50,281 bases of DNA, taken from Deltaproteobacteria bacterium (GTDB lineage Bacteria > Myxococcota_A > Polyangia > HGW-17). Where the stretch lies: NCBI GenBank assembly GCA_027858615.1, contig JAQICJ010000302.1, forward strand, positions 1-50,281. Reading direction: 5' to 3'. The notes under the pieces were generated by a model. The model had not been told where the DNA came from. It did no database searches and worked only from the letters and a program-made list of their open reading frames with translations. How positions within the stretch are numbered: the first letter of the stretch is position 1; the number at the start of each line of letters is the position of its first letter. The translations under genes and the position numbers were made by a program. Positions 1,103 through 30,830 of this stretch are shown one piece after another.

Positions 1103-2407
1103 TTATTTCTCCGGCCAATGTTTATCAAGGATCTCCTTTTTAATTCCAACTTCTTTGGCACTAAAACATTCCGCCATGGTTTTCCATCCCATATCCAGAG
1201 CATCATTCAAACTGACATCTACACTGAGGTCCATGAATCTTTCCTGGAAAAGATCAGCATATTTGAGAAATTTTTCATCTTCTTCAGTTTTCTCAAATCC
1301 CATGGATATTTTCTTTTTGGATTCCAGAGCTTTGGCGTAAAGCCTGATCATGGAATTCATAACAGCACCGTGGTCTTTCCTTGTTACCTTGCCGATAACA
1401 AGTTGTTTCAAACGGCTGAGGGACCCGAAGGGGTTGATAACTCCATTATTCAAATAATACTGTCCCTCGGTAATATAACCGGTGTTGTCGGGAACTGGAT
1501 GAGTAACATCTCCACCTGGCATTGTAGTAACCGCCAAGATAGTAATGGAACCTGCTCCATCAAAATCAACTGCCTTCTCATATCGAGAAGCCAGATCACT
1601 ATAGAGAGAACCGGGATAACCAAGATTGGAAGGAACCTGTTCCATGGCAACACTAATTTCTTTGAGAGCATCGGCAAAAGCAGTGAGATCGCTAAGTAAT
1701 ACCAGAACTCTCTTGCCTTCAATCCCGAACTTTTCGGCTACCGCTAGTGCCATATCAGGTACAAGCAACCTTTCAACCACTGGATCTGCAGCGGTATGGA
1801 TAAACATGACTGTTCTGTCCATAATGCCGCCTTCTTCGAATTTTCTTCTGAAACCGATGAATTCGTCAAATTTAAGCCCGATTCCACCTAAAATTACCAC
1901 ATCAGCATCTGCCTGCAGGGCAATTCTGGACAAAAGTTCGTTGTAGGGCTCTCCCGGAGTTGAAAAAATAGGGAGCTTCTGACTTTCTACCAAGGGATTG
2001 AAGATATCAATCATGGGTATGCGAGTTTCAATAAAGTTGTGTGGAACTACCCTTTTGACGGGATTGACCGAAGGACCACCGATATTAATATCTTCGGCGT
2101 TTTCTATTTCGGGTTTTCCGTCCATTGGAACTCCACTGCCTGTAAAAATGCGCCCCAAAAGATTCTCCGAATAACCAACCCGCATGGGATGACCCAAGAA
2201 TCTGACTTTGGCTATATTGGAAAGTCCCTTTGCTCCGGAAAAAACCTGGAGAGAAACCTTGCTTCCTTCAATTCTGATAACCTGAGCCAGTGAAACTTCC
2301 CCATTGGTATTGGTTATGGATGCCAACTCGCGATAGGAAACTCCATCGGCTTCCAATTCAATAATATCACCAATAATATTTTTTATTCTGGTATATTCTT
2401 TAAACAA
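1103..2407 (-). CDS. atpB: V/A-type ATP synthase subunit B (non-catalytic)
   Basis: The ORF track gives 1103..2428. The family is recognised over the full length (e.g. [42 protein letters not shown]). The likely true start is TTG at 2407, preceded by GGAGGAGG, overlapping the atpA stop. Confidence 0.93.
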
Positions 2408-4178
2408 TCTTTCCTCCTCCGGAAACAATTATCTCTTCTATTTCACCAGTTAATTCACTGTATTTGTCATTGTCTGTTTCCACATAATTTTTCTGGTAAA
2501 ACTTATCCTGCAGATCGGTAAAAAATTTGCGGGCTTCTTTTTTATCATCAAAATCAAAGGGAGTACTTAAAACTTTGTACAACAATTTGAAATCTTTGGC
2601 CTGTCTGCTGAGATCAGCCGCACAATCGACATCGTCAAAAGCATTTTGTTGCAGATAGGTAAAATCCACCAGTTCGGATTTGAGATATTTTGTGAGATCG
2701 TCAACATTGACGCCCTCTTCTCCGACAACTGTCATCATCTTGCCTACTTCCGCTCCAGTACTTAACAGTTCTTTGGTTTTTTTGACCATTTTGGTCCAGT
2801 CAGGATCCATTTGTTCATTGAGACTGTCTGCCATTTGATCGATGTAAAGGGAGTAGGAATCAAGGGGGTCGATAGCCGGATACTTGCGTTCATCGGAACG
2901 CTTCCTGCTTAGACCAAGAAAAGCTCCCACAACCTTGAGGGTAGCCTGAGTAACAGGTTCTTCAAAGTTGCCTCCCGCAGGTGAAACTGTACCGATTAAA
3001 GTAACAGCTCCCTTTTCATTGTTGTGTAATTTGACCAGACCGGCTCTTTCATAAAGACCGGCAATACGACTTTCCAGATAAGCGGGGAAAGCTTCTTCAC
3101 CGGGAATTTCTTCGAGACGACCTGACATTTCGCGCATGGCCTGAGCCCATCTGGAAGTGGAATCAGCCAGTACCAGAACGTCAAGTCCCATCTGGCGATA
3201 GTACTCTGCCAGAGTAATTCCGGTATATACCGATGCTTCACGTGCAGCAACAGGCATGGAAGATGTATTACAGATGATAATGGTTCTATCCATCAAGGAA
3301 CCGCCTGTTTGAGGATCTTCCATCTCGGGGAACTCGTTGATGAGTTCAACAACTTCACCGGCACGCTCGCCGCAGGCAACTACAATAACTACATCGGCGT
3401 TGGAAAATTTGGAGAGAAGATGCTGCAATACTGTCTTGCCGGCTCCAAAAGGACCAGGAATACAAGCAGTACCGCCCCTGCTGACAGGAAACATTGTGTC
3501 AATCAAACGCTGTTTGGTGGTAAGAAGCTCTTCGGGAAAAATTCTTTCCTTGTAGGCTTTGATGGCTTTTTTGACCGGCCACTCCTGCAGCATTGTCACT
3601 TTGATGATTTTGCCTTCCAATTCAAGCTCGGCAATAACATCTTTAACTGTGTATTCACCTTTGGAGGAAATCTTTTTTACTTTGGCAACACCAAGCATGC
3701 CCAAAGGAGCCAGAATTTTATGACTGAGATGGTGTTCAGGAACTTCACCCAGCCATTGACCGGCTCTGATTTTATCGCCTTCTTTTACCAAAGGGGTGAA
3801 TTCCCATGTTTTTTCATGGTTTACCGGTTCTTGGTACTGCCCTCTCTGAAGAAAAAAGCCGTCTTTATTGTCCAGCAATTCCAGAGGATTCTGCAAACCA
3901 TCATAGATTTCACCGAGAATTCCTGGGGCTACACCTACAGCAAGCATTTCCCCGGTAAAATTGACCTTCATGCCAACAGTAATTCCGGTTGTATCTTCAA
4001 AAACCTGCATATAACATTGTTGACCCAGGACTTTAATAACTTCGGATTTAAGATTCATTTCACCAACCAGAACAAAAGCAACCTCGTTTTGAACAACACT
4101 GCCCTCGTCTATCTGTACGGTAACCATATTACCATTAATTCCGACCACGTGACCTGTTGTGGAAGAAGAATCGATCAA
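2400..4178 (-). CDS. atpA: V/A-type ATP synthase catalytic subunit A
   Basis: The ORF track gives 2400..4229. Walker A GPFGAGKT and the non-homologous insert region typical of A subunits are present. The likely start is TTG at 4178, with GGAGG 7 nt upstream, immediately after the upstream gene's stop (4175-4177). Confidence 0.95.
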
Positions 4179-4891
4179 GCGAACACCTCCAACATTTTTT
4201 CTATATCGGCATCTTTTTCTGTTTTCCATGAATCAATCACCATGGCTTTGGCAAGATATGCCAGCACGGCGTCTATGGAAAAAGGATCTATGCCTTCAAG
4301 TTCCAAATAATAAGCAAGTCGAGCTTTGTCTATGACAAGTTCTCTTTCTTGCGGATCTTTAGCTTCAGATGCTCTCAATACCAGAGAACCATACTGAAAA
4401 CTGTTTTTACCATTAAAAATTTGTATTTTACCTTCTTCGATACCAAGTTTCTTAGCTCTGGCTGCAGCAACAGCATTGCGCAGACCAATTTCCATTTCAG
4501 TGTACCCCTGGAGAAATTTGGAATTGTATTTTCTGGAAATTTCGATAAGTGCATTGAAATAAGATTCCCAAAGCTTTTTAAGCAGTATTTCCTTTTGAAC
4601 CACACCCTGTTCCATTCTGAAAATATTATCGAGAAAAGGAGGGAGATCCAACTTGTTTTCAAAATCTTCCCTTGATAAGGTTCCAGATTTCCTGAAAAAA
4701 TCTTTCTCAAATAAAATTGCCTCGGCATTGGCAGTATCTACAAACCAGAGGATACTGCTGACCAGATCTTTATCGCGTCCCCCAACTTCAGAAAATATCT
4801 GATGGGTAATTTTTGATAAAGACGGAATTGAAGTTGATTTGAGATCTCCTTTTACAGGTGGCAGAGATGTCATCAATCTGTAGTATTTCAA
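4175..4891 (-). CDS. V-ATPase-operon protein between E and A (DUF2764-like; probable C/d-subunit surrogate)
   Basis: 238-aa ORF in the exact slot occupied by DUF2764 proteins in Bacteroides/Chlamydia/spirochaete-type V-ATPase operons. I did not recognise a diagnostic motif; the call rests mainly on position. Confidence 0.55.
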   Translation of the reverse strand: MKYYRLMTSLPPVKGDLKSTSIPSLSKITHQIFSEVGGRDKDLVSSILWFVDTANAEAILFEKDFFRKSGTLSREDFENKLDLPPFLDNIFRMEQGVVQKEILLKKLWESYFNALIEISRKYNSKFLQGYTEMEIGLRNAVAAARAKKLGIEEGKIQIFNGKNSFQYGSLVLRASEAKDPQERELVIDKARLAYYLELEGIDPFSIDAVLAYLAKAMVIDSWKTEKDADIEKMLEVFA

Positions 4892-8842: not shown

Positions 8843-9325
8843 CTATTTGTCGAGTTTCCTCACATAATCGAGAAAAGATGATTTGTTTTCCATGATATCA
8901 TTGTATTTTTCTCTGGACATGTTGCCCTTGCGTCGGCTTCTGTTTCTATAATTACCCGATTTGTTGCGGTTGTTTCTTCGGTAATAACGATGTCCACCAT
9001 ATCTTCTGCCCAAACCTTCGGCTATAAGTTCTTTGGCCAGGGTTTCAGGTTCAACTTCGTCATTTTTGGCTAAAAATGCTAATTCTCTGTAAAGAGATTT
9101 TGACATTTCAATTTTGAAATCACCATCCCATTCATCTTCATCAATAGGAGTGGGGGGATGTTTAAGGGATTCAATTTTTTCTTCAGTGGATTTATCCAGA
9201 AGCTCGATGACCTCTTCCCAGGTTTCACCTTGAACTGTACACTCAGGCAATTCCGGAACCCTTCCTTCATATTTTTCTTCTTCAGTATTATAATTTACAA
9301 CTATGCGATAATGTCTATGTTTCAT
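8843..9325 (-). CDS. HicB-like (UPF0150) plus ribbon-helix-helix protein with Arg/Asn-rich C-terminal tail
   Basis: YRIVVNYNTEEEKYEGRVPELPECTVQGETWEEVIELL matches the HicB N-domain pattern (vPdLPGC..qGdT.EEA). FKIEMSKSLYRELAFLAKNDEVEPETLAKELIAEGL looks like an RHH. The tail is GRRYGGHRYYRRNNRNKSGNYRNRSRRKGN. No HicA-sized ORF is adjacent. Confidence 0.6.
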   Translation of the reverse strand: MKHRHYRIVVNYNTEEEKYEGRVPELPECTVQGETWEEVIELLDKSTEEKIESLKHPPTPIDEDEWDGDFKIEMSKSLYRELAFLAKNDEVEPETLAKELIAEGLGRRYGGHRYYRRNNRNKSGNYRNRSRRKGNMSREKYNDIMENKSSFLDYVRKLDK

Positions 9326-9430: not shown

Positions 9431-9594
9431 TAGTTCCCGTCCCACAATGGGGTTATTGACTGAATAAGAAATTTGCCTCAGATGCACGCAGTAACTTCGC
9501 AGACATAGCCACAACTATTTCAAGCAGTTATGACAAAACAGATGAAGTAAAATGACCTGTTCAGGGGATGACCTTCCTTTTTGGTACGGGGATA
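9431..9594. repeat. Hairpin repeat family, full copy 1 (about 164 nt; left end TAGTTCCCGTCCCA, degenerate right end TGGTACGGGGATA)
   Basis: Aligns by eye at roughly 85% identity over its whole length with 17175-17340. Intergenic; no credible ORF. Confidence 0.8.
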
Positions 9595-9995
9595 AGGTGC
9601 AGAAACTGAAACGATAAAGAACCCGATGGTATTCTATGGAATGGAAACCAACCGGTTTTCAGTTTATTATGTTGTCTCAGATCAATTCATAAGGTTAATT
9701 TTGGAAATGTCAATATATATTGTGGTTCAGTCTTTACAATCAGATTATTGTATTCCACATATAAGGAACTACTTGAGTTTTTTCTTGAAAAAAGTTGGAA
9801 TTTATATAAATTTAACCATCTCGTGGATATAGCCAGGCAACAAACTGATATCCAAATATTTTCCAAATTTGTTTTCCCATCACCCAATTAATACCCACGA
9901 AAATAAGCTTGGAATCCACCACAATTAATATATTCGCAATTTTGTTAAACCTTCACAATAAGGTATAGCAAAAATTACAAAATTCCATTTTAACG

Positions 9996-10017
9996 CTCCC
10001 TTTTAAAACGGGAACTA
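9996..10017. repeat. Solo right-end fragment of the same repeat family (CTCCCTTTTAAAACGGGAACTA)
   Basis: ACGGGAACTA (10008-10017) is the exact reverse complement of TAGTTCCCGT at 9431-9440. The preceding CCCTTTT resembles the sub-terminal CCTTCCTTTTT of the full copies. Confidence 0.55.
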
Positions 10018-10639: not shown

Positions 10640-11812
10640 ATGAAGCCTGTTCTGGCCAGGATTATTTCTGCTGCTCCTCCACAGGCGCAAAATCATATCC
10701 AAACTTACCAACTTCAAACCATTCCTTCCTCAAAATACAAAACAGGAGACTGGGTTTATCTTGACCAAATACCCGGAAGCAACAACTACCGCATAAATGG
10801 TATGGCTCAACCCACCCAAAGCCAGTTTCCCTCCTTTGAATGGAAGCGACTGCACCAGCAACTTGATAACGGTTTGAACCGCATTGAAATTTTGAAACTC
10901 CGCAGCCGGATCCTGCATCAGATCAGAGAATTCTTTCGCACAAAGGGACATCTGGAAGTGGAAACTCCTCTGCTGGTTCCTTCACCGGGGGTGGAAACTC
11001 ACCTCAAGGCCATAAAAACTGACCATTACTTCCTATCCCCTTCTCCGGAATTTCAGATGAAAAGGCTGCTTGCCGGAGGTATCGGCTCCATCTATCAAAT
11101 TGCCCATTCTTTCCGGGCAGGTGAAACAGGGAACAGGCACAATCCCGAATTTACCATGCTGGAGTGGTATTCAACAGGGATTAACGGGGAAGAACTGCGC
11201 CGGGAAACTGAAGAGTTGATTTCCTTTTTACAATCCAATCTCGAACTACCCTGTCCCCTGCCTGAACCTCCTTATCGCAGAATCACGATGGCGCAAGCTT
11301 TTGCTGAACATGCTGGAGTAACAGATCTACGAGCCAGTCCCAGACAGATGTATAAACAGGCCGGCATCCTGGAAAAATACCAGCAAAAAATAACTTGGGA
11401 AGAAGGTTTTTTTGAAATCTTCATAGAAAAAGTAGAGCCGGTTTTAACAAAAGAGGGACCAGTTTTCCTTACCCAGTGGCCCATTGAATTTGCCTCCCTG
11501 TCCAAACCTCTGGACTCAAATCCCAAAGTTGCCGACCGCTTTGAGTTTTTTGCTGAAAATCTGGAAATAGCCAATGGTTTTGCCGAACTGATCGAACCAG
11601 ATATTCAGCGCCAGCGTTGTCTGGAAGATTTGGAATATCGCAGAAAACACAAACTTGAACTCTACCCCCTTGACGAAAAATTTCTGAATTCACTCAAGGA
11701 AGCAATGCCTCCCACCAGCGGCATTGCTTTGGGTCTGGATCGTCTGATCATGCTTTTTGCCGGAACCAGCAAAATAGAAAACGCTCTTACCTTTTCCCAC
11801 TTCGAACTTTAA
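10640..11812 (+). CDS. epmA: EF-P lysine aminoacylase (EpmA/GenX/PoxA, LysRS class II catalytic-domain paralog) with N-terminal extension of about 65 aa
   Basis: LEVETPLL, SPEFQMKRLLAGG, HNPEFTMLEWY, FELANGF-like EIANGFAEL and GIALGLDRLIM closely parallel E. coli EpmA. It starts 1 nt after the efp stop. Confidence 0.85.
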   Translation: MKPVLARIISAAPPQAQNHIQTYQLQTIPSSKYKTGDWVYLDQIPGSNNYRINGMAQPTQSQFPSFEWKRLHQQLDNGLNRIEILKLRSRILHQIREFFRTKGHLEVETPLLVPSPGVETHLKAIKTDHYFLSPSPEFQMKRLLAGGIGSIYQIAHSFRAGETGNRHNPEFTMLEWYSTGINGEELRRETEELISFLQSNLELPCPLPEPPYRRITMAQAFAEHAGVTDLRASPRQMYKQAGILEKYQQKITWEEGFFEIFIEKVEPVLTKEGPVFLTQWPIEFASLSKPLDSNPKVADRFEFFAENLEIANGFAELIEPDIQRQRCLEDLEYRRKHKLELYPLDEKFLNSLKEAMPPTSGIALGLDRLIMLFAGTSKIENALTFSHFEL

Positions 11813-11845
11813 AATTCAGATTTGAACTCCTCTGCAAATTAGAGA

Positions 11846-12967
11846 TCAGGGCAAAATTACATTGAGATGATTGCCATCTATTTTGAGTTTTCCAATATTT
11901 TTGAATGTTCTGGAATATCTTCTGACTTTGCGATTAATTATCCTGCTCCATTTTTTACCGGCAGGACGGGGCAGTTTTCCATATTTTTTATCTTTTGCCG
12001 AAGGACCGTTCAAAACAACGGGAATGAATTTTATCTTTTCCATTCGTTTGAGCTTGCCCTTTTTTACAAATCTGAGGGTGGCTATCCCCGAATATTTCCT
12101 GGACTTCCAGGTATTATCAAATAAAAAATTTCCCAGAGACCAGAAAGCAATCATTTTACCTTTTATCTGAATCCCTCGCAAAACATGAGGATGAGAACCT
12201 ATAAGCAGATCAAGGCCGGCTTTGGCCAGTAAATCCATTAAATTTTTTTCAAATCTGAAAGCAGTATTTTTGTACTCTTCTCCGAAGTGAAGCATGAGAA
12301 CTGCAAAATCAACCTGCTTTTTCAACTTGGTAATCACCGGAGGCAGATATTTATAATTCCCTCGAAAGGGTGAATAAGCATAAAAAGCACCCTTTTTTGG
12401 AGGAGGAAAGTTATAGAGGGTGGTTACAGAAATTATTCCGACTTTAATACCATTTTTATTGATAATATGTGGTTTCCAGGCCTTTTCGAGAATTTTCCCC
12501 GATCCTGTCACTCCCAGACCGGATTTTTCAAGAATTGAAATGGTCTCCAGCAATCCTTTTTTTCCCTGATCAAAGGTATGATTATTTGCTGTTCCCAGAA
12601 TTGTAAAACCAGCTTTTTTAAGAATTTCAGCTCCCCGGGGACGCCCCCAGAAAGTGAGCATGTGATTACGGGCATATCTTGCTTCATCTGGACTGCATTT
12701 TTTGTATTTGCATTGACGAGGTTTGCGGCGATTGCGGTATCTTTTAAGACTAAAAGGAGTTTCCAGATTTCCTGCGACTATATCTTTGTCCTGGAAGTAT
12801 TTTTTTACATAACGGAAAGGATGATCCAAACCAAATTTTTTGCCGGATCTTCCGAAGAAGATGTCTCCCACAGCTGCAAAATCAAGTATTTTTGTTGCAT
12901 CTGTCAGGGAAGAATTTTTACCGATGGGAACAATTGACAGGAAAAAAGCAAGATAGACATTAAACAT
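11846..12967 (-). CDS. CapA-family (poly-gamma-glutamate synthesis/metallophosphoesterase-like) exported protein
   Basis: VAGNLETPFS, GTANNHTFDQG, LMLHFGEEY and GSHPHVLRG are CapA/PgsA-type motifs. The ORF track extends to 13231, but that extension overlaps glmM. ATG at 12967 (MFNVYLAFFLSIVPIG, signal-like) is the more plausible start. Confidence 0.7.
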   Translation of the reverse strand: MFNVYLAFFLSIVPIGKNSSLTDATKILDFAAVGDIFFGRSGKKFGLDHPFRYVKKYFQDKDIVAGNLETPFSLKRYRNRRKPRQCKYKKCSPDEARYARNHMLTFWGRPRGAEILKKAGFTILGTANNHTFDQGKKGLLETISILEKSGLGVTGSGKILEKAWKPHIINKNGIKVGIISVTTLYNFPPPKKGAFYAYSPFRGNYKYLPPVITKLKKQVDFAVLMLHFGEEYKNTAFRFEKNLMDLLAKAGLDLLIGSHPHVLRGIQIKGKMIAFWSLGNFLFDNTWKSRKYSGIATLRFVKKGKLKRMEKIKFIPVVLNGPSAKDKKYGKLPRPAGKKWSRIINRKVRRYSRTFKNIGKLKIDGNHLNVILP

Positions 12968-15394: not shown

Positions 15395-15481
15395 TTTCCA
15401 TAATTCAAGCAGAGGGTTGTATTTTTTTCTTTGCTTTTTTTCTTTGTCTTAATTAAATTTTATTCTTATGGAGGCAAAAAA

Positions 15482-17047
15482 ATGAGACTTGTAACATCTG
15501 GTGAAATGAAAAAGCTCGATCTGTTTACCATAAACAAGGTTGGAGTTCCTGATTCAGCTTTAATGGAACTAGCCGGTTTTGGTGTAGTTCAGAAAATCAT
15601 GGCAAAATGGGAAGTTGAATCCTCCAATTTTCTTATAATTTGTGGCAAAGGAAATAATGGCGGTGATGGTTATGTAGTCGCCCGCCATCTTTTCAACAAG
15701 GGACTTGAAGTCAGTATTCTCTCCCTGGGACCGGAAAAATTGGGAAAAAGCAGCAGAATCAACTATGAAGCGGCGGTAAATTTGGATATTCCCATTTATG
15801 AAGTTACTTCCACCGCAGATCTGATGAATTTTGAAAATATCATCCAGAATTCCGATTTCATTATCGATGCCGTTTTTGGTACAGGCCTCGATCGACCCAT
15901 TACAGGCATTGCCCGAGAAATAATTTCCGCGGTCAATGCCACTGACTGCATCAAAATTGCGGTGGACATACCTTCGGGAATAAGTGCAGATCACGGCTGT
16001 GTTCTTGGAGAACACGCCATCAAGGCTGATCTTACCGTCACTTTTGCTTTTCCCAAAATTGGTCAGTTTTCTTCACCTGGTTTTGCCTATTGCGGTGAAA
16101 TAGAAGTGGTTGACATCGGAGTAGTTGACCATCAGGAAACCAATTCCAGACGATGTTTTTTATTGACTGATAACTGGGTACGTTCCAATCTTCCCTACAG
16201 ACCAGCCTACGGTCACAAGGGAACTTTCGGCCATACTCTGATTATAGCCGGTTCCCTTGGAAAATCAGGAGCTGCAATCATGGCTTCAGAATCTGCTGTC
16301 AGTGCCGGTGCCGGTCTGGTTTCTGTTCTTGCTCCCCATAATATTATTCCCACCCTGATGGGAAGACTTACTGAAGTAATGGGATGTGGTTACGGAACTG
16401 AAAAGGGCTCTATCAAGAGTGATGATTATGATCAAATTATAACTGAAATGGCTGGCAAAAGGGTTGTAGCAATAGGTCCGGGTATACCCAACAATGAAAT
16501 AATGCAGGAAATCCTGTACAAAATCATAGAAAACTCGGATATACCAATGGTTCTTGATGCCGATGCACTCAATCTAGTTGCCAAAAAACCTCAAATTCTG
16601 AAAAAAACAAAAGCTCCCATCTTAATCACCCCCCATCCTGGTGAATTTGCCCGCCTGCTTGATCAACCGATTGCTCAAATTCAGAAAAGACGCATTGAAA
16701 CAGCTCTTGAATTTGCCCGCAAATATGAAGTTTTTGTCCTGCTCAAAGGCGCCAGATCCGTAATTGCCTCTCCTCAAGGAGAAATTGCTGTCAATCCCAC
16801 AGGCAACAATGGTATGGCCAGTGGTGGCACTGGAGATGTTTTGACGGGAATAACAGCTTCTTTCATTTCCCAGGGACTCGATCCTTTTACAGCTGCCGGG
16901 ATTGGGGCTTTTCTGCATGGAAGAGCCGGAGATCTTGCAGCCAGGGAAAAAGGTGAATTTGCCTTGAAAGCAACTGATTTGATCCAATATCTGCCTGCTG
17001 CTTTTTATTCCCTCAACAGTGAAAATCTGCACAATTTTACTGAATAA
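15482..17047 (+). CDS. nnr: Bifunctional NAD(P)H-hydrate repair enzyme (epimerase plus ADP-dependent dehydratase, YjeF)
   Basis: The N-domain has GKGNNGGDGYV. The C-domain has GHKGTFGH, LDADAL and GGTGDVLTG. The likely start is ATG at 15482, after GGAGG. Confidence 0.9.
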   Translation: MRLVTSGEMKKLDLFTINKVGVPDSALMELAGFGVVQKIMAKWEVESSNFLIICGKGNNGGDGYVVARHLFNKGLEVSILSLGPEKLGKSSRINYEAAVNLDIPIYEVTSTADLMNFENIIQNSDFIIDAVFGTGLDRPITGIAREIISAVNATDCIKIAVDIPSGISADHGCVLGEHAIKADLTVTFAFPKIGQFSSPGFAYCGEIEVVDIGVVDHQETNSRRCFLLTDNWVRSNLPYRPAYGHKGTFGHTLIIAGSLGKSGAAIMASESAVSAGAGLVSVLAPHNIIPTLMGRLTEVMGCGYGTEKGSIKSDDYDQIITEMAGKRVVAIGPGIPNNEIMQEILYKIIENSDIPMVLDADALNLVAKKPQILKKTKAPILITPHPGEFARLLDQPIAQIQKRRIETALEFARKYEVFVLLKGARSVIASPQGEIAVNPTGNNGMASGGTGDVLTGITASFISQGLDPFTAAGIGAFLHGRAGDLAAREKGEFALKATDLIQYLPAAFYSLNSENLHNFTE

Positions 17048-17174
17048 CCATATAACCAATACATTTCTTAGCTTATTTCCCTCTTTTATAATTGACTGGT
17101 TTAGCTGGTTTTTGGGAATTCTTCATATTTTAGAGAATTTTTTCTTGAAAGTATTCAGTGTTTAATTTAGTAAA

Positions 17175-17340
17175 TAGTTTCCATCCCAGAATGGGGTTTT
17201 TTGACTGAATGAGAAGTTTGCCTCAGATGTGCCCAGTAACTTCGCCGACATAGTTGACACTATTTCAAGAAGTTACGACAAAGCAGATGAGGTAAAATGA
17301 CCTGTTCAGGCGATAACCTTCCTTTTTGGGACGGGAACTA
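17175..17340. repeat. Hairpin repeat family, full copy 2 (166 nt; TAGTTTCCATCCCA ... TGGGACGGGAACTA)
   Basis: The terminal 14-nt arms are inverted complements (one G-T, one mismatch). The interior aligns with 9431-9594. Intergenic, between nnr and rnfA. Confidence 0.8.
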
Positions 17341-17344
17341 ACTA

Positions 17345-17378
17345 GAAACGGGAACCAAATAGTACCCGCAACAACTCA
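17345..17378. repeat. Adjacent right-end-like (AAACGGGAACC) and left-end-like (AAATAGTACCCGCAACAA) fragments of the repeat family
   Basis: Short by-eye matches to the ends of the full copies, located between the full copy and the mini copy. Confidence 0.4.
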
Positions 17379-17379
17379 C

Positions 17380-17438
17380 TAGTACCCATCTCAGAATGGG
17401 GGTTATTGGCTGACCTCCTTTTTTTGAGATGGGTACTA
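17380..17438. repeat. Mini copy of the repeat family (59 nt, perfect 14-bp inverted arms TAGTACCCATCTCA / TGAGATGGGTACTA)
   Basis: It retains the left sub-terminal GAATGGGGGTTATTGGCTGAC and the right sub-terminal CTCCTTTTTTT of the full copies but lacks the roughly 110-nt core. Confidence 0.75.
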
Positions 17439-17529: not shown

Positions 17530-18108
17530 ATGGAATATCTCCTTATAGCAATTAACTCAGTTTTTATTGGCAATTTGATTCTGGCCAAATTTCTGGGAAT
17601 CTGCCCCTTCCTGGGGGTAAGCAAAAAAGTATCCACTGCCCTGGGTATGAGTATGGCGGTCATGTTCGTCATGACCCTGGCTGCCACTGTTACCTGGATT
17701 CTTTTCCATTTTCTGCTTGAACCGTTGAACCTGCAATATCTGCGCACAATAGTTTTTATTCTGGTTATTGCCTCTCTGGTTCAACTTACAGAAATGGCCA
17801 TCCAGAAAATTTCTCCGGCTCTTTACGAAGCCCTGGGGATTTACCTGCCTTTGATAACCACCAACTGTGCAATTCTTGGTGTAGCCATTAATTCAATAGA
17901 AAAGGAATATAATTTTCTGGGAATGCTGGTTTACGCATTCTTTGGCGCCGTCGGCTTTGCTCTGGCCTTACTGCTTTTTTCTGGAATCAGGGAAAGGCTG
18001 GATATATCATCAGTACCAAAATCATTCAGAGGAGCCGCTTCCTCGTTGATAGTCGCAGGAATTTTGTCCCTTGCTTTCATGGGATTTGCAGGATTAGTAC
18101 CGGGATAA
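17530..18108 (+). CDS. rnfA: Rnf complex subunit A
   Basis: MEYLLIAINSVFIGNLILAKFLGICPFLGVS is typical RnfA/NqrE. GGGAGG lies upstream of ATG at 17530 (the track start 17464 is likely too early). Confidence 0.9.
   Translation: MEYLLIAINSVFIGNLILAKFLGICPFLGVSKKVSTALGMSMAVMFVMTLAATVTWILFHFLLEPLNLQYLRTIVFILVIASLVQLTEMAIQKISPALYEALGIYLPLITTNCAILGVAINSIEKEYNFLGMLVYAFFGAVGFALALLLFSGIRERLDISSVPKSFRGAASSLIVAGILSLAFMGFAGLVPG

Positions 18109-30472: not shown

Positions 30473-30830
<358 letters not shown>

Follow-up and report, generated by a model that had tools for sequence, protein, structure and literature searches.

The window analysed here, a contiguous stretch of 50,281 nt, contains a cluster of related hairpin repeats at 17175–17438. 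The cluster is situated in the 483-nt spacer that leads from nnr (15431–17047), the gene for an NAD(P)H-hydrate epimerase/dehydratase, to rnfA (17530–18108), both of which are encoded on the plus strand, and it is laid out as a 166-nt unit followed, after a spacer of 39 nt, by a unit of 59 nt. A further copy, at 9431, is located in the spacer between divergently oriented genes upstream of efp. An exact-protein look-up of RnfA gave no match. The features attributed to the repeat are the following:

9431–9599, plus strand: second full copy, older and degenerate at its 3' end (nhmmer E = 4.7e-45)
9991–10017, plus strand: possible solo 3'-end remnant (TAACGCTCCCTTTTAAAACGGGAACTA), 74% identical to 17314–17348, its terminal motif carrying 2 mismatches
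17173–17174, no strand assigned: left flanking dinucleotide AA, the degenerate partner of AC at 17341–17342 (right side) in the 2-bp target duplication
17175–17340, plus strand: full hairpin MITE copy of 166 nt with the ends TAGTTTCCATCCCA ... TGGGACGGGAACTA (nhmmer E = 2.7e-52 against the family profile)
17341–17379, plus strand: remnant of element-end fragments (…AAACGGGAAC / TAGTACCCG…), a block of 36–40 nt also found in locus L062 of a sister species
17380–17438, plus strand: mini copy of 59 nt that retains 34 nt from the 5' end and 25 nt from the 3' end of the element and lacks the core
17398–17425, plus strand: terminator-like stem-loop GGGGGTTATTGGCTGACCTCC followed by TTTTTTT, inside the mini copy (consensus scan, pattern match only)

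The unit is non-coding, 166 nt in length and delimited by terminal inverted repeats of 14 nt, 5'-TAGTTYCCATCCCA … TGGGATGGRAACTA-3'. From end to end, one half of the unit is paired with the other in a single long imperfect hairpin. The consensus ends TAGTTCCCATCCCA and TGGGATGGGAACTA match perfectly (14/14), and the copies in the window do so at 12/14 and 14/14 positions. Read directly, the imperfect arms of the copy at 17175 form 12 Watson-Crick pairs, one G-U and one A-C pair per 14-mer, and the unit folds into a rod-like end-to-end hairpin of -64.8 kcal/mol (z = -7.1). The mini copy has perfect 14-bp arms and gives a near-perfect hairpin of -36.5 kcal/mol (z = -8). A preliminary description of this DNA had placed both units where we find them. 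It had also put the identity of the two full copies at about 85% and the end of the older one at 9594; the identity was confirmed (86% over 142 ungapped nt, 9449–9590 against 17194–17335, and 83% over the whole alignment), and the end had to be moved to 9599 on the basis of an empty-site comparison.

According to a repeat finder the three 5' ends belong together as a single family, and the terminal motif, with up to 2 mismatches allowed, occurs 14 times in the window against 3.3 expected, a count reached in 0 of 100 shuffles. A profile of 65 copies run over the 50-kb window recovered only three members (17175, 9431 and 17380); the remnant at 9991–10017 is marginal, and the profile search gave no match there. 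Note that positions 17341–17342 belong to the remnant downstream of the full copy and at the same time make up the right-hand repeat of the 2-bp duplication. The putative terminator at 17398–17425 is co-directional with nnr and rnfA. As the preliminary description had remarked, the window encodes no transposase according to Pfam scans and precomputed Pfam hits of its large ORFs.

Family size and insertion polymorphism

A 22-nt pattern for the 5' end, scanned over 185,579 species-representative genomes, gave at least 68 matches at no fewer than 60 loci, and among the matches listed 59 of 60 loci derive from one assembly, JAWLEA01 ('Polyangia bacterium 20BLK6-1.bin.28'). This is a sister species of the window organism, with 91% DNA identity over 5 kb and 88% identity of the Nnr protein, and it harbors more than 60 copies. 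In 460 kb of JAWLEA01 we located 213 termini and 92 paired elements, 62 of which measure 165–167 nt, the rest being minis of 25–60 nt or composites. Mean pairwise identity among the copies is 83%, and their age structure comprises a young cluster of 20 copies that are at least 95% alike, plus old copies. Multi-copy repeats typically break assemblies, and as expected of such a repeat, the metagenome contig L001, which is 99.9% identical and originates from the window's own species, stops at 17313, inside the full copy. The same contig is missing a 108-bp segment (9086–9193; 36 codons, in frame) of the hypothetical ORF 8843–9325 on the minus strand, with no tandem repeat there to account for its absence.

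Outside this pair of species, pattern scans of metagenome contigs and viral contigs retrieved no family member, and blastn of the unit against 5,426 E. coli genomes and 72,556 plasmids yielded no match. Two more distant relatives, L064 and L065 (56% and 51% identity in Nnr), are free of copies over the roughly 21 kb covered in each. A match in an Acidobacteriota sequence (L060), with no transposase and a high-G+C context, was judged to be chance or chimeric, and the sole match of a general pattern in metagenome contigs (L063) was put down to chance. From the data at hand, the distribution of the family seems limited to a single genus-level clade of Myxococcota with low G+C (~40%). The host genome carries a Myxococcota/Polyangia label at only ~40% G+C, and at 1103–4229 on the minus strand the window encodes two adjacent V/A-type ATPase catalytic-subunit genes (ATP-synt_ab and ATP-synt_VA_C domains); both features are unusual for Myxococcota as usually known.

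For the comparison of orthologous sites we used L062, a 21.6-kb locus of the sister species (GCA_051747125.1). In the nnr–rnfA spacer L062 reads …TTTAATAACTAGAAAC…, and the window reads …TTTAGTAAA[166 nt]ACTAGAAAC…, so that an uninterrupted TAACTA (TA-AC-TA) in the sister species corresponds to a site enlarged by 168 nt (166 + 2) in the window. Upstream of efp, L062 is likewise uninterrupted where the window has 9431–9599. Conversely, between pgm and pdxJ L062 holds a 165-nt copy (8966–9130) with the flanks TCT…TCT, and the site is empty in the window. Three sites therefore differ in occupancy between the two species, two being filled in the window and one in L062. The copies at 17175 and 9431 are insertions younger than the divergence of the two species, the one at 17175 being lineage-specific. 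Together with the more than 60 copies, the filled and empty sites corroborate the proposal of a dispersed, mobile hairpin family of MITE type.

The mini copy has a different history. At its exact site L062 contains a full 166-nt copy (11728–11893), preceded immediately by the same 36–40-nt remnant, and the mini copy thus derives, by internal deletion in place, from an insertion made before the two species split, as its earlier description as a deletion derivative had implied; the remnant block at 17341–17379, being present in both species, is also older than the split. Nine other minis in JAWLEA01 all have different breakpoints and therefore represent independent deletions rather than an amplifying subfamily.

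Some further observations concern individual copies and the surroundings of the insertion sites. In one copy, L032 7809–7930, the central segment is inverted relative to the arms, a rearrangement of the kind expected of template switching or recombination within the hairpin. A 57-nt 5' fragment at L003 2326–2385 lies between ORFs 1966–2328 and 2360–2752, seemingly the halves of one repeat-protein gene, and possibly represents a rare case of insertion into a gene. In the nnr–rnfA spacer a block of about 50 nt (17120–17170), located directly upstream of where the element inserted, is identical in the window and the sister species, the surrounding spacer having diverged, and it has TTTTTTCTTGAAA in common with the efp upstream region (9784–9800). 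This block could be a promoter or operator, and the MITEs would then lie within the rnf leader. Upstream of efp the window also has a 64-nt segment (9834–9897), unrelated to the MITE, that the sister species lacks.

Target-site duplication and junctions

Every intact copy is found in the frame TA-NN-[TAGTT…AACTA]-NN-TA, with the inner TA in 62/63 and 53/63 copies. The dinucleotide NN is identical on both flanks in 45 of 63 copies, and random pairing of flanks yielded a mean of 9.8 and a maximum of 19 in 2000 trials. Its composition, in the element's frame, is GT 17, AC 6, TT 6, TC 5 and AA 4, plus others, and the target logo derived from the flanks is the palindrome Y-T-A-N-N-T-A-R. Duplications of 3 bp were observed in three of the 63 copies and, in addition to these, in a copy of L062. 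Note that models with a duplication of 2, 4 or 6 bp all add 168 nt, and that 2 bp was chosen on the strength of 7 informative copies out of 8: in the 8 cases in which the outer dinucleotide is not TA, it was copied on the other side only once. As the non-TA outer dinucleotides were not copied in 7/8, the inner TA is part of the inverted repeat and NN alone is duplicated, and a 4- or 6-bp duplication is disfavored.

The observation that the copies are bounded by TA had originally been considered compatible with a TA target-site duplication of the Tc1/IS630 type, with the alternative that TA belongs to the inverted repeat, and it is this alternative that the flanks bear out. A Tc1/IS630-type MITE that duplicates TA would explain why every intact copy is TA-bounded, and terminal TA together with TA targets is found in many bacterial MITEs (PMC2229807). 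The direct repeat, however, is the variable dinucleotide outside of TA, insertion into TAACTA added 168 rather than 164 nt, 3-bp duplications exist, and an IS630-like transposase was encountered in none of the sequences read, so that we assign this explanation next to no probability. With the 2-bp duplication, the 166-nt unit shows the structural features of a MITE, namely small size and lack of transposase coding, terminal inverted repeats, duplication of the target, and dispersed copies with insertion polymorphism, whereas no autonomous IS with the same terminal repeats was detected in the window, in 460 kb of JAWLEA01 or in the scans of sequence collections.

Some copies directly abut one another. 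We counted 14 abutting pairs with spacers of exactly 2 bp, and three more junctions share TA. Wherever a 2-bp junction could be oriented it was head-to-tail (11/11) and never head-to-head; by our own calculation this bias has p ~0.0005, or ~0.002 with the possibly duplicated L024 pair counted once. In that locus the tandem copies (394–559 and 562–727) are identical, and pairs of this kind could be tandem duplications rather than insertions. None of 44 classifiable copies lies in an ORF, all being intergenic, and their orientation relative to tandem neighbor genes is random (12 same versus 14 opposite). In 10 of the 44, the TAG of the element (CTA on the other strand) supplies the stop codon of a neighboring ORF. 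With TAG at its start and CTA at its end, the element recreates the target on both sides when it inserts into YTA-NN-TAR, and this fits both the head-to-tail arrays with their 2-bp spacers and the insertions at stop codons. An insertion just before a TAR stop codon comes at no cost to the gene.

The hairpin and the strand on which it is maintained

In a consensus structure derived from 65 aligned copies, 47 base pairs are formed and 93.8% of the cells are paired, compared with 33–45% in slid controls. At 19 pairs both sides have changed, more than in any of 500 shuffles, although the copies are related by descent and covariation counts are inflated accordingly. Examples are the exchange of U-A and G-C at columns 70/99 and of G-C and A-U at columns 64/105. 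The internal helices that had been noticed between the two full copies of the window are therefore preserved, and covary, across the family. As evidenced by the folding energies, the two strands are not equivalent: the plus strand folds at -71 kcal/mol and the minus strand at -55 kcal/mol, a difference of about 16 kcal/mol that favors the plus strand in 58 of 60 distinct copies. A hand count of derived single changes on the plus strand gave about 148 G-U against about 55 A-C cells. The hairpin is thus maintained, specifically on one strand. Neither this single-strand maintenance nor the compensatory changes are predicted by plain double-stranded cut-and-paste transposition.

These same data raise the question whether the unit is primarily a structured RNA, either an sRNA gene or a cis-acting hairpin for termination, processing or mRNA stability, with its multiplicity being secondary. 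The extensive pairing with two-sided changes beyond the shuffles, the better fold of the plus strand and the excess of derived G-U over A-C all speak for such a role, and both the mini copy and the 5' end of the element resemble intrinsic terminators. Moreover, the hairpin RNAs of the MITEs ERIC and YPAL in Yersinia have been reported to affect mRNA stability (PMC2229807). A search of the window against Rfam 15, a check that the preliminary description had proposed, returned no family for the repeat; RNase P RNA was the sole match, and in the cluster region even E values up to 10 yielded only generic hairpins far below threshold. The RNase P RNA in question, of bacterial class A, is located at 30479–30822 on the minus strand and was matched over its full length with 288.8 bits.

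Further observations are at odds with a primary RNA function. The random orientation relative to flanking genes argues against a terminator or other sense-strand function, and no promoter-like site was detected in or beside the copies. Many copies are mosaics of non-matching subfamily arms, and in such recombinants the pairing is broken. Target duplications, empty sites, and truncated as well as nested or tandem copies are the behavior of a transposon, and the covariation counts that favor an RNA are those inflated by shared descent. The free-standing RNA gene that had been offered as an alternative consequently found no support, and we regard a primarily RNA-based explanation as improbable. 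For the mobile element that we prefer, a secondary effect at the RNA level is plausible, for instance through the terminator-like sequence at 17398–17425, and an effect of the copies on the expression of rnf or efp may be inferred.

The mobilizing enzyme and related systems

We conclude that the cluster very probably consists of members of a family of non-autonomous DNA transposons, i.e. a bacterial MITE, that is moved in trans. What has been established here is that the repeats belong to one family and are mobile, by which rule the target is chosen and duplicated, that the junctions are head-to-tail, and that the mini copy was deleted in place. In the mechanism that we propose, a transposase encoded elsewhere in the genome would move the element in trans. 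It would cut the palindromic YTA-NN-TAR with a stagger of 2 bp, or rarely 3 bp, and repair would duplicate NN. With every insertion the TAG and CTA ends would recreate the target on each side, from which both head-to-tail arrays with 2-bp spacers and stop-codon insertions that leave the neighbor gene intact would arise. The copies would then decay by internal, hairpin-symmetric deletion, leaving minis and solo ends.

With respect to the enzyme, the best fit to this behavior, again assuming action in trans, would be a DDE transposase of the IS30-like copy-out-paste-in type, an assignment that we consider possible, yet short of probable. It is favored by the duplication of 2(–3) bp, the near-palindromic target, the insertion at the element's own ends and the exclusive occurrence of IRL-IRR junctions. 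IS30 itself generates a 2-bp duplication and prefers hot spots that are nearly palindromic; when its own inverted repeats serve as the target, only IRL-IRR junctions are produced (PMC9333248). The likeness to the IS30 family, in the 2–3-bp duplication, the palindromic target and the head-to-tail junctions, is one of behavior only, and in about 0.5 Mb of sequence read there was no IS30-family transposase and no autonomous element with these ends. IS30 ends are not known to start with TA. In the 460 kb of JAWLEA01 we searched for an autonomous partner as long terminus pairs with ORFs between them, by self-BLAST of all loci for multi-copy segments, and by clustering of the sequence inside unpaired termini, and none of these approaches revealed one; a 'not-MITE' end pattern had 0 matches in metagenome contigs, and a pattern scan of viral contigs likewise had 0. 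Note that metagenome-assembled genomes often lose IS copies. It would be a more far-reaching reading, and an unlikely one in our view, that this is the first recognized MITE driven by an IS30-type transposase with a self-regenerating target, and that its strand-specific, covarying hairpin reflects a single-stranded DNA intermediate or a transcript that serves propagation or host use, e.g. as a leader or terminator before rnf.

The strand-specific stability of the hairpin would also be in line with a REPIN-like doublet that a RAYT/IS200-like HUH tyrosine transposase mobilizes in the form of single-stranded DNA. JAWLEA01 indeed contains at least two paralogous HUH genes for proteins of 321 aa, which score 44.7 bits against NCBIfam REP_Tyr_transpos, below its cut-off of 80, and a copy of the element is found 10–117 nt downstream of each of them. 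However, the loci had been fetched for containing the element, so that such proximity is expected, and the copies stand on one side of the HUH genes only, in opposite orientations and at different distances, with no bracketing. The HUH unit has an upstream palindrome of its own, CCCCAACCGGGTTGGGG, which is different and occurs nowhere else in the loci. In addition, target duplications are present in the 166-nt family, and the HUH Y1 enzymes (IS200/IS605, RAYT) are not known to leave any. The RAYT-like gene of L050 and L053, with its own palindrome and not bracketed by the element, was therefore rejected as the partner; we considered its link to the element incidental, and a REPIN-like origin of the family appears very improbable. 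The HUH genes reside in two paralogous units of about 1.25 kb (L050 971–2217 and L053 53–1291) that are 84% identical, each with the perfect palindrome upstream of the gene, and may constitute a separate IS200-like mobile unit.

Returning to a MITE moved in trans, several consequences follow for the use of these sequences. In annotation, the odd hairpins before rnf and efp are to be read as selfish insertions and not as regulatory RNAs, and the assembly breaks at these positions are explained. For transposon biology, the family is a well-resolved addition to a short list of bacterial MITEs whose target rule is defined, and this rule, a self-regenerating 2-bp duplication at YTA-NN-TAR with strict head-to-tail junctions, provides a handle for finding the transposase. 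The presence or absence of copies offers markers for strain typing in an uncultured low-G+C clade of Myxococcota. Finally, the strand-asymmetric, covarying hairpin poses the small question of whether the constraint acts at the level of RNA or of single-stranded DNA.

Among known systems, REP and REPIN sequences with their RAYT enzymes resemble the 166-nt family as high-copy intergenic palindromes with long hairpins, and a RAYT-like HUH gene occurs in the sister genome. The family differs from them in its 14-nt inverted repeats and its duplications, in the lack of a GTAG/CGTC-tagged REP unit of 20–40 nt, and in that the HUH genes are unbracketed. No sequence similarity to ERIC and the related palindromic MITEs was detected by blastn of the 166-nt unit against the E. 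coli genomes and plasmids, and E. coli genomes are expected to carry ERIC.

The closest parallels in architecture are these palindromic MITEs, ERIC/RU-1 (127 bp), YPAL/RU-2 (168 bp), Correia/NEMIS and RUP. Like the family described here, they are shorter than 200 bp, non-coding and A+T-rich, and they have terminal inverted repeats with a terminal 5'-TA-3' and duplicate their target (PMC2229807, PMC10969869). They share the intergenic location in many copies, the single end-to-end hairpin, the tendency towards clustering and nesting, and the occurrence of filled and empty sites between close relatives. For bacterial MITEs the partner transposase is usually unknown and orphan status is common (PMC2229807). 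The differences are found in the target, as Correia and RUP duplicate TA and YPAL duplicates 3–26 bp, in contrast to the variable 2 bp at YTA-NN-TAR of the 166-nt family, and in the host, an uncultured low-G+C lineage of Myxococcota. The family is previously undescribed, but it belongs to an ordinary class of selfish elements, the bacterial MITEs.
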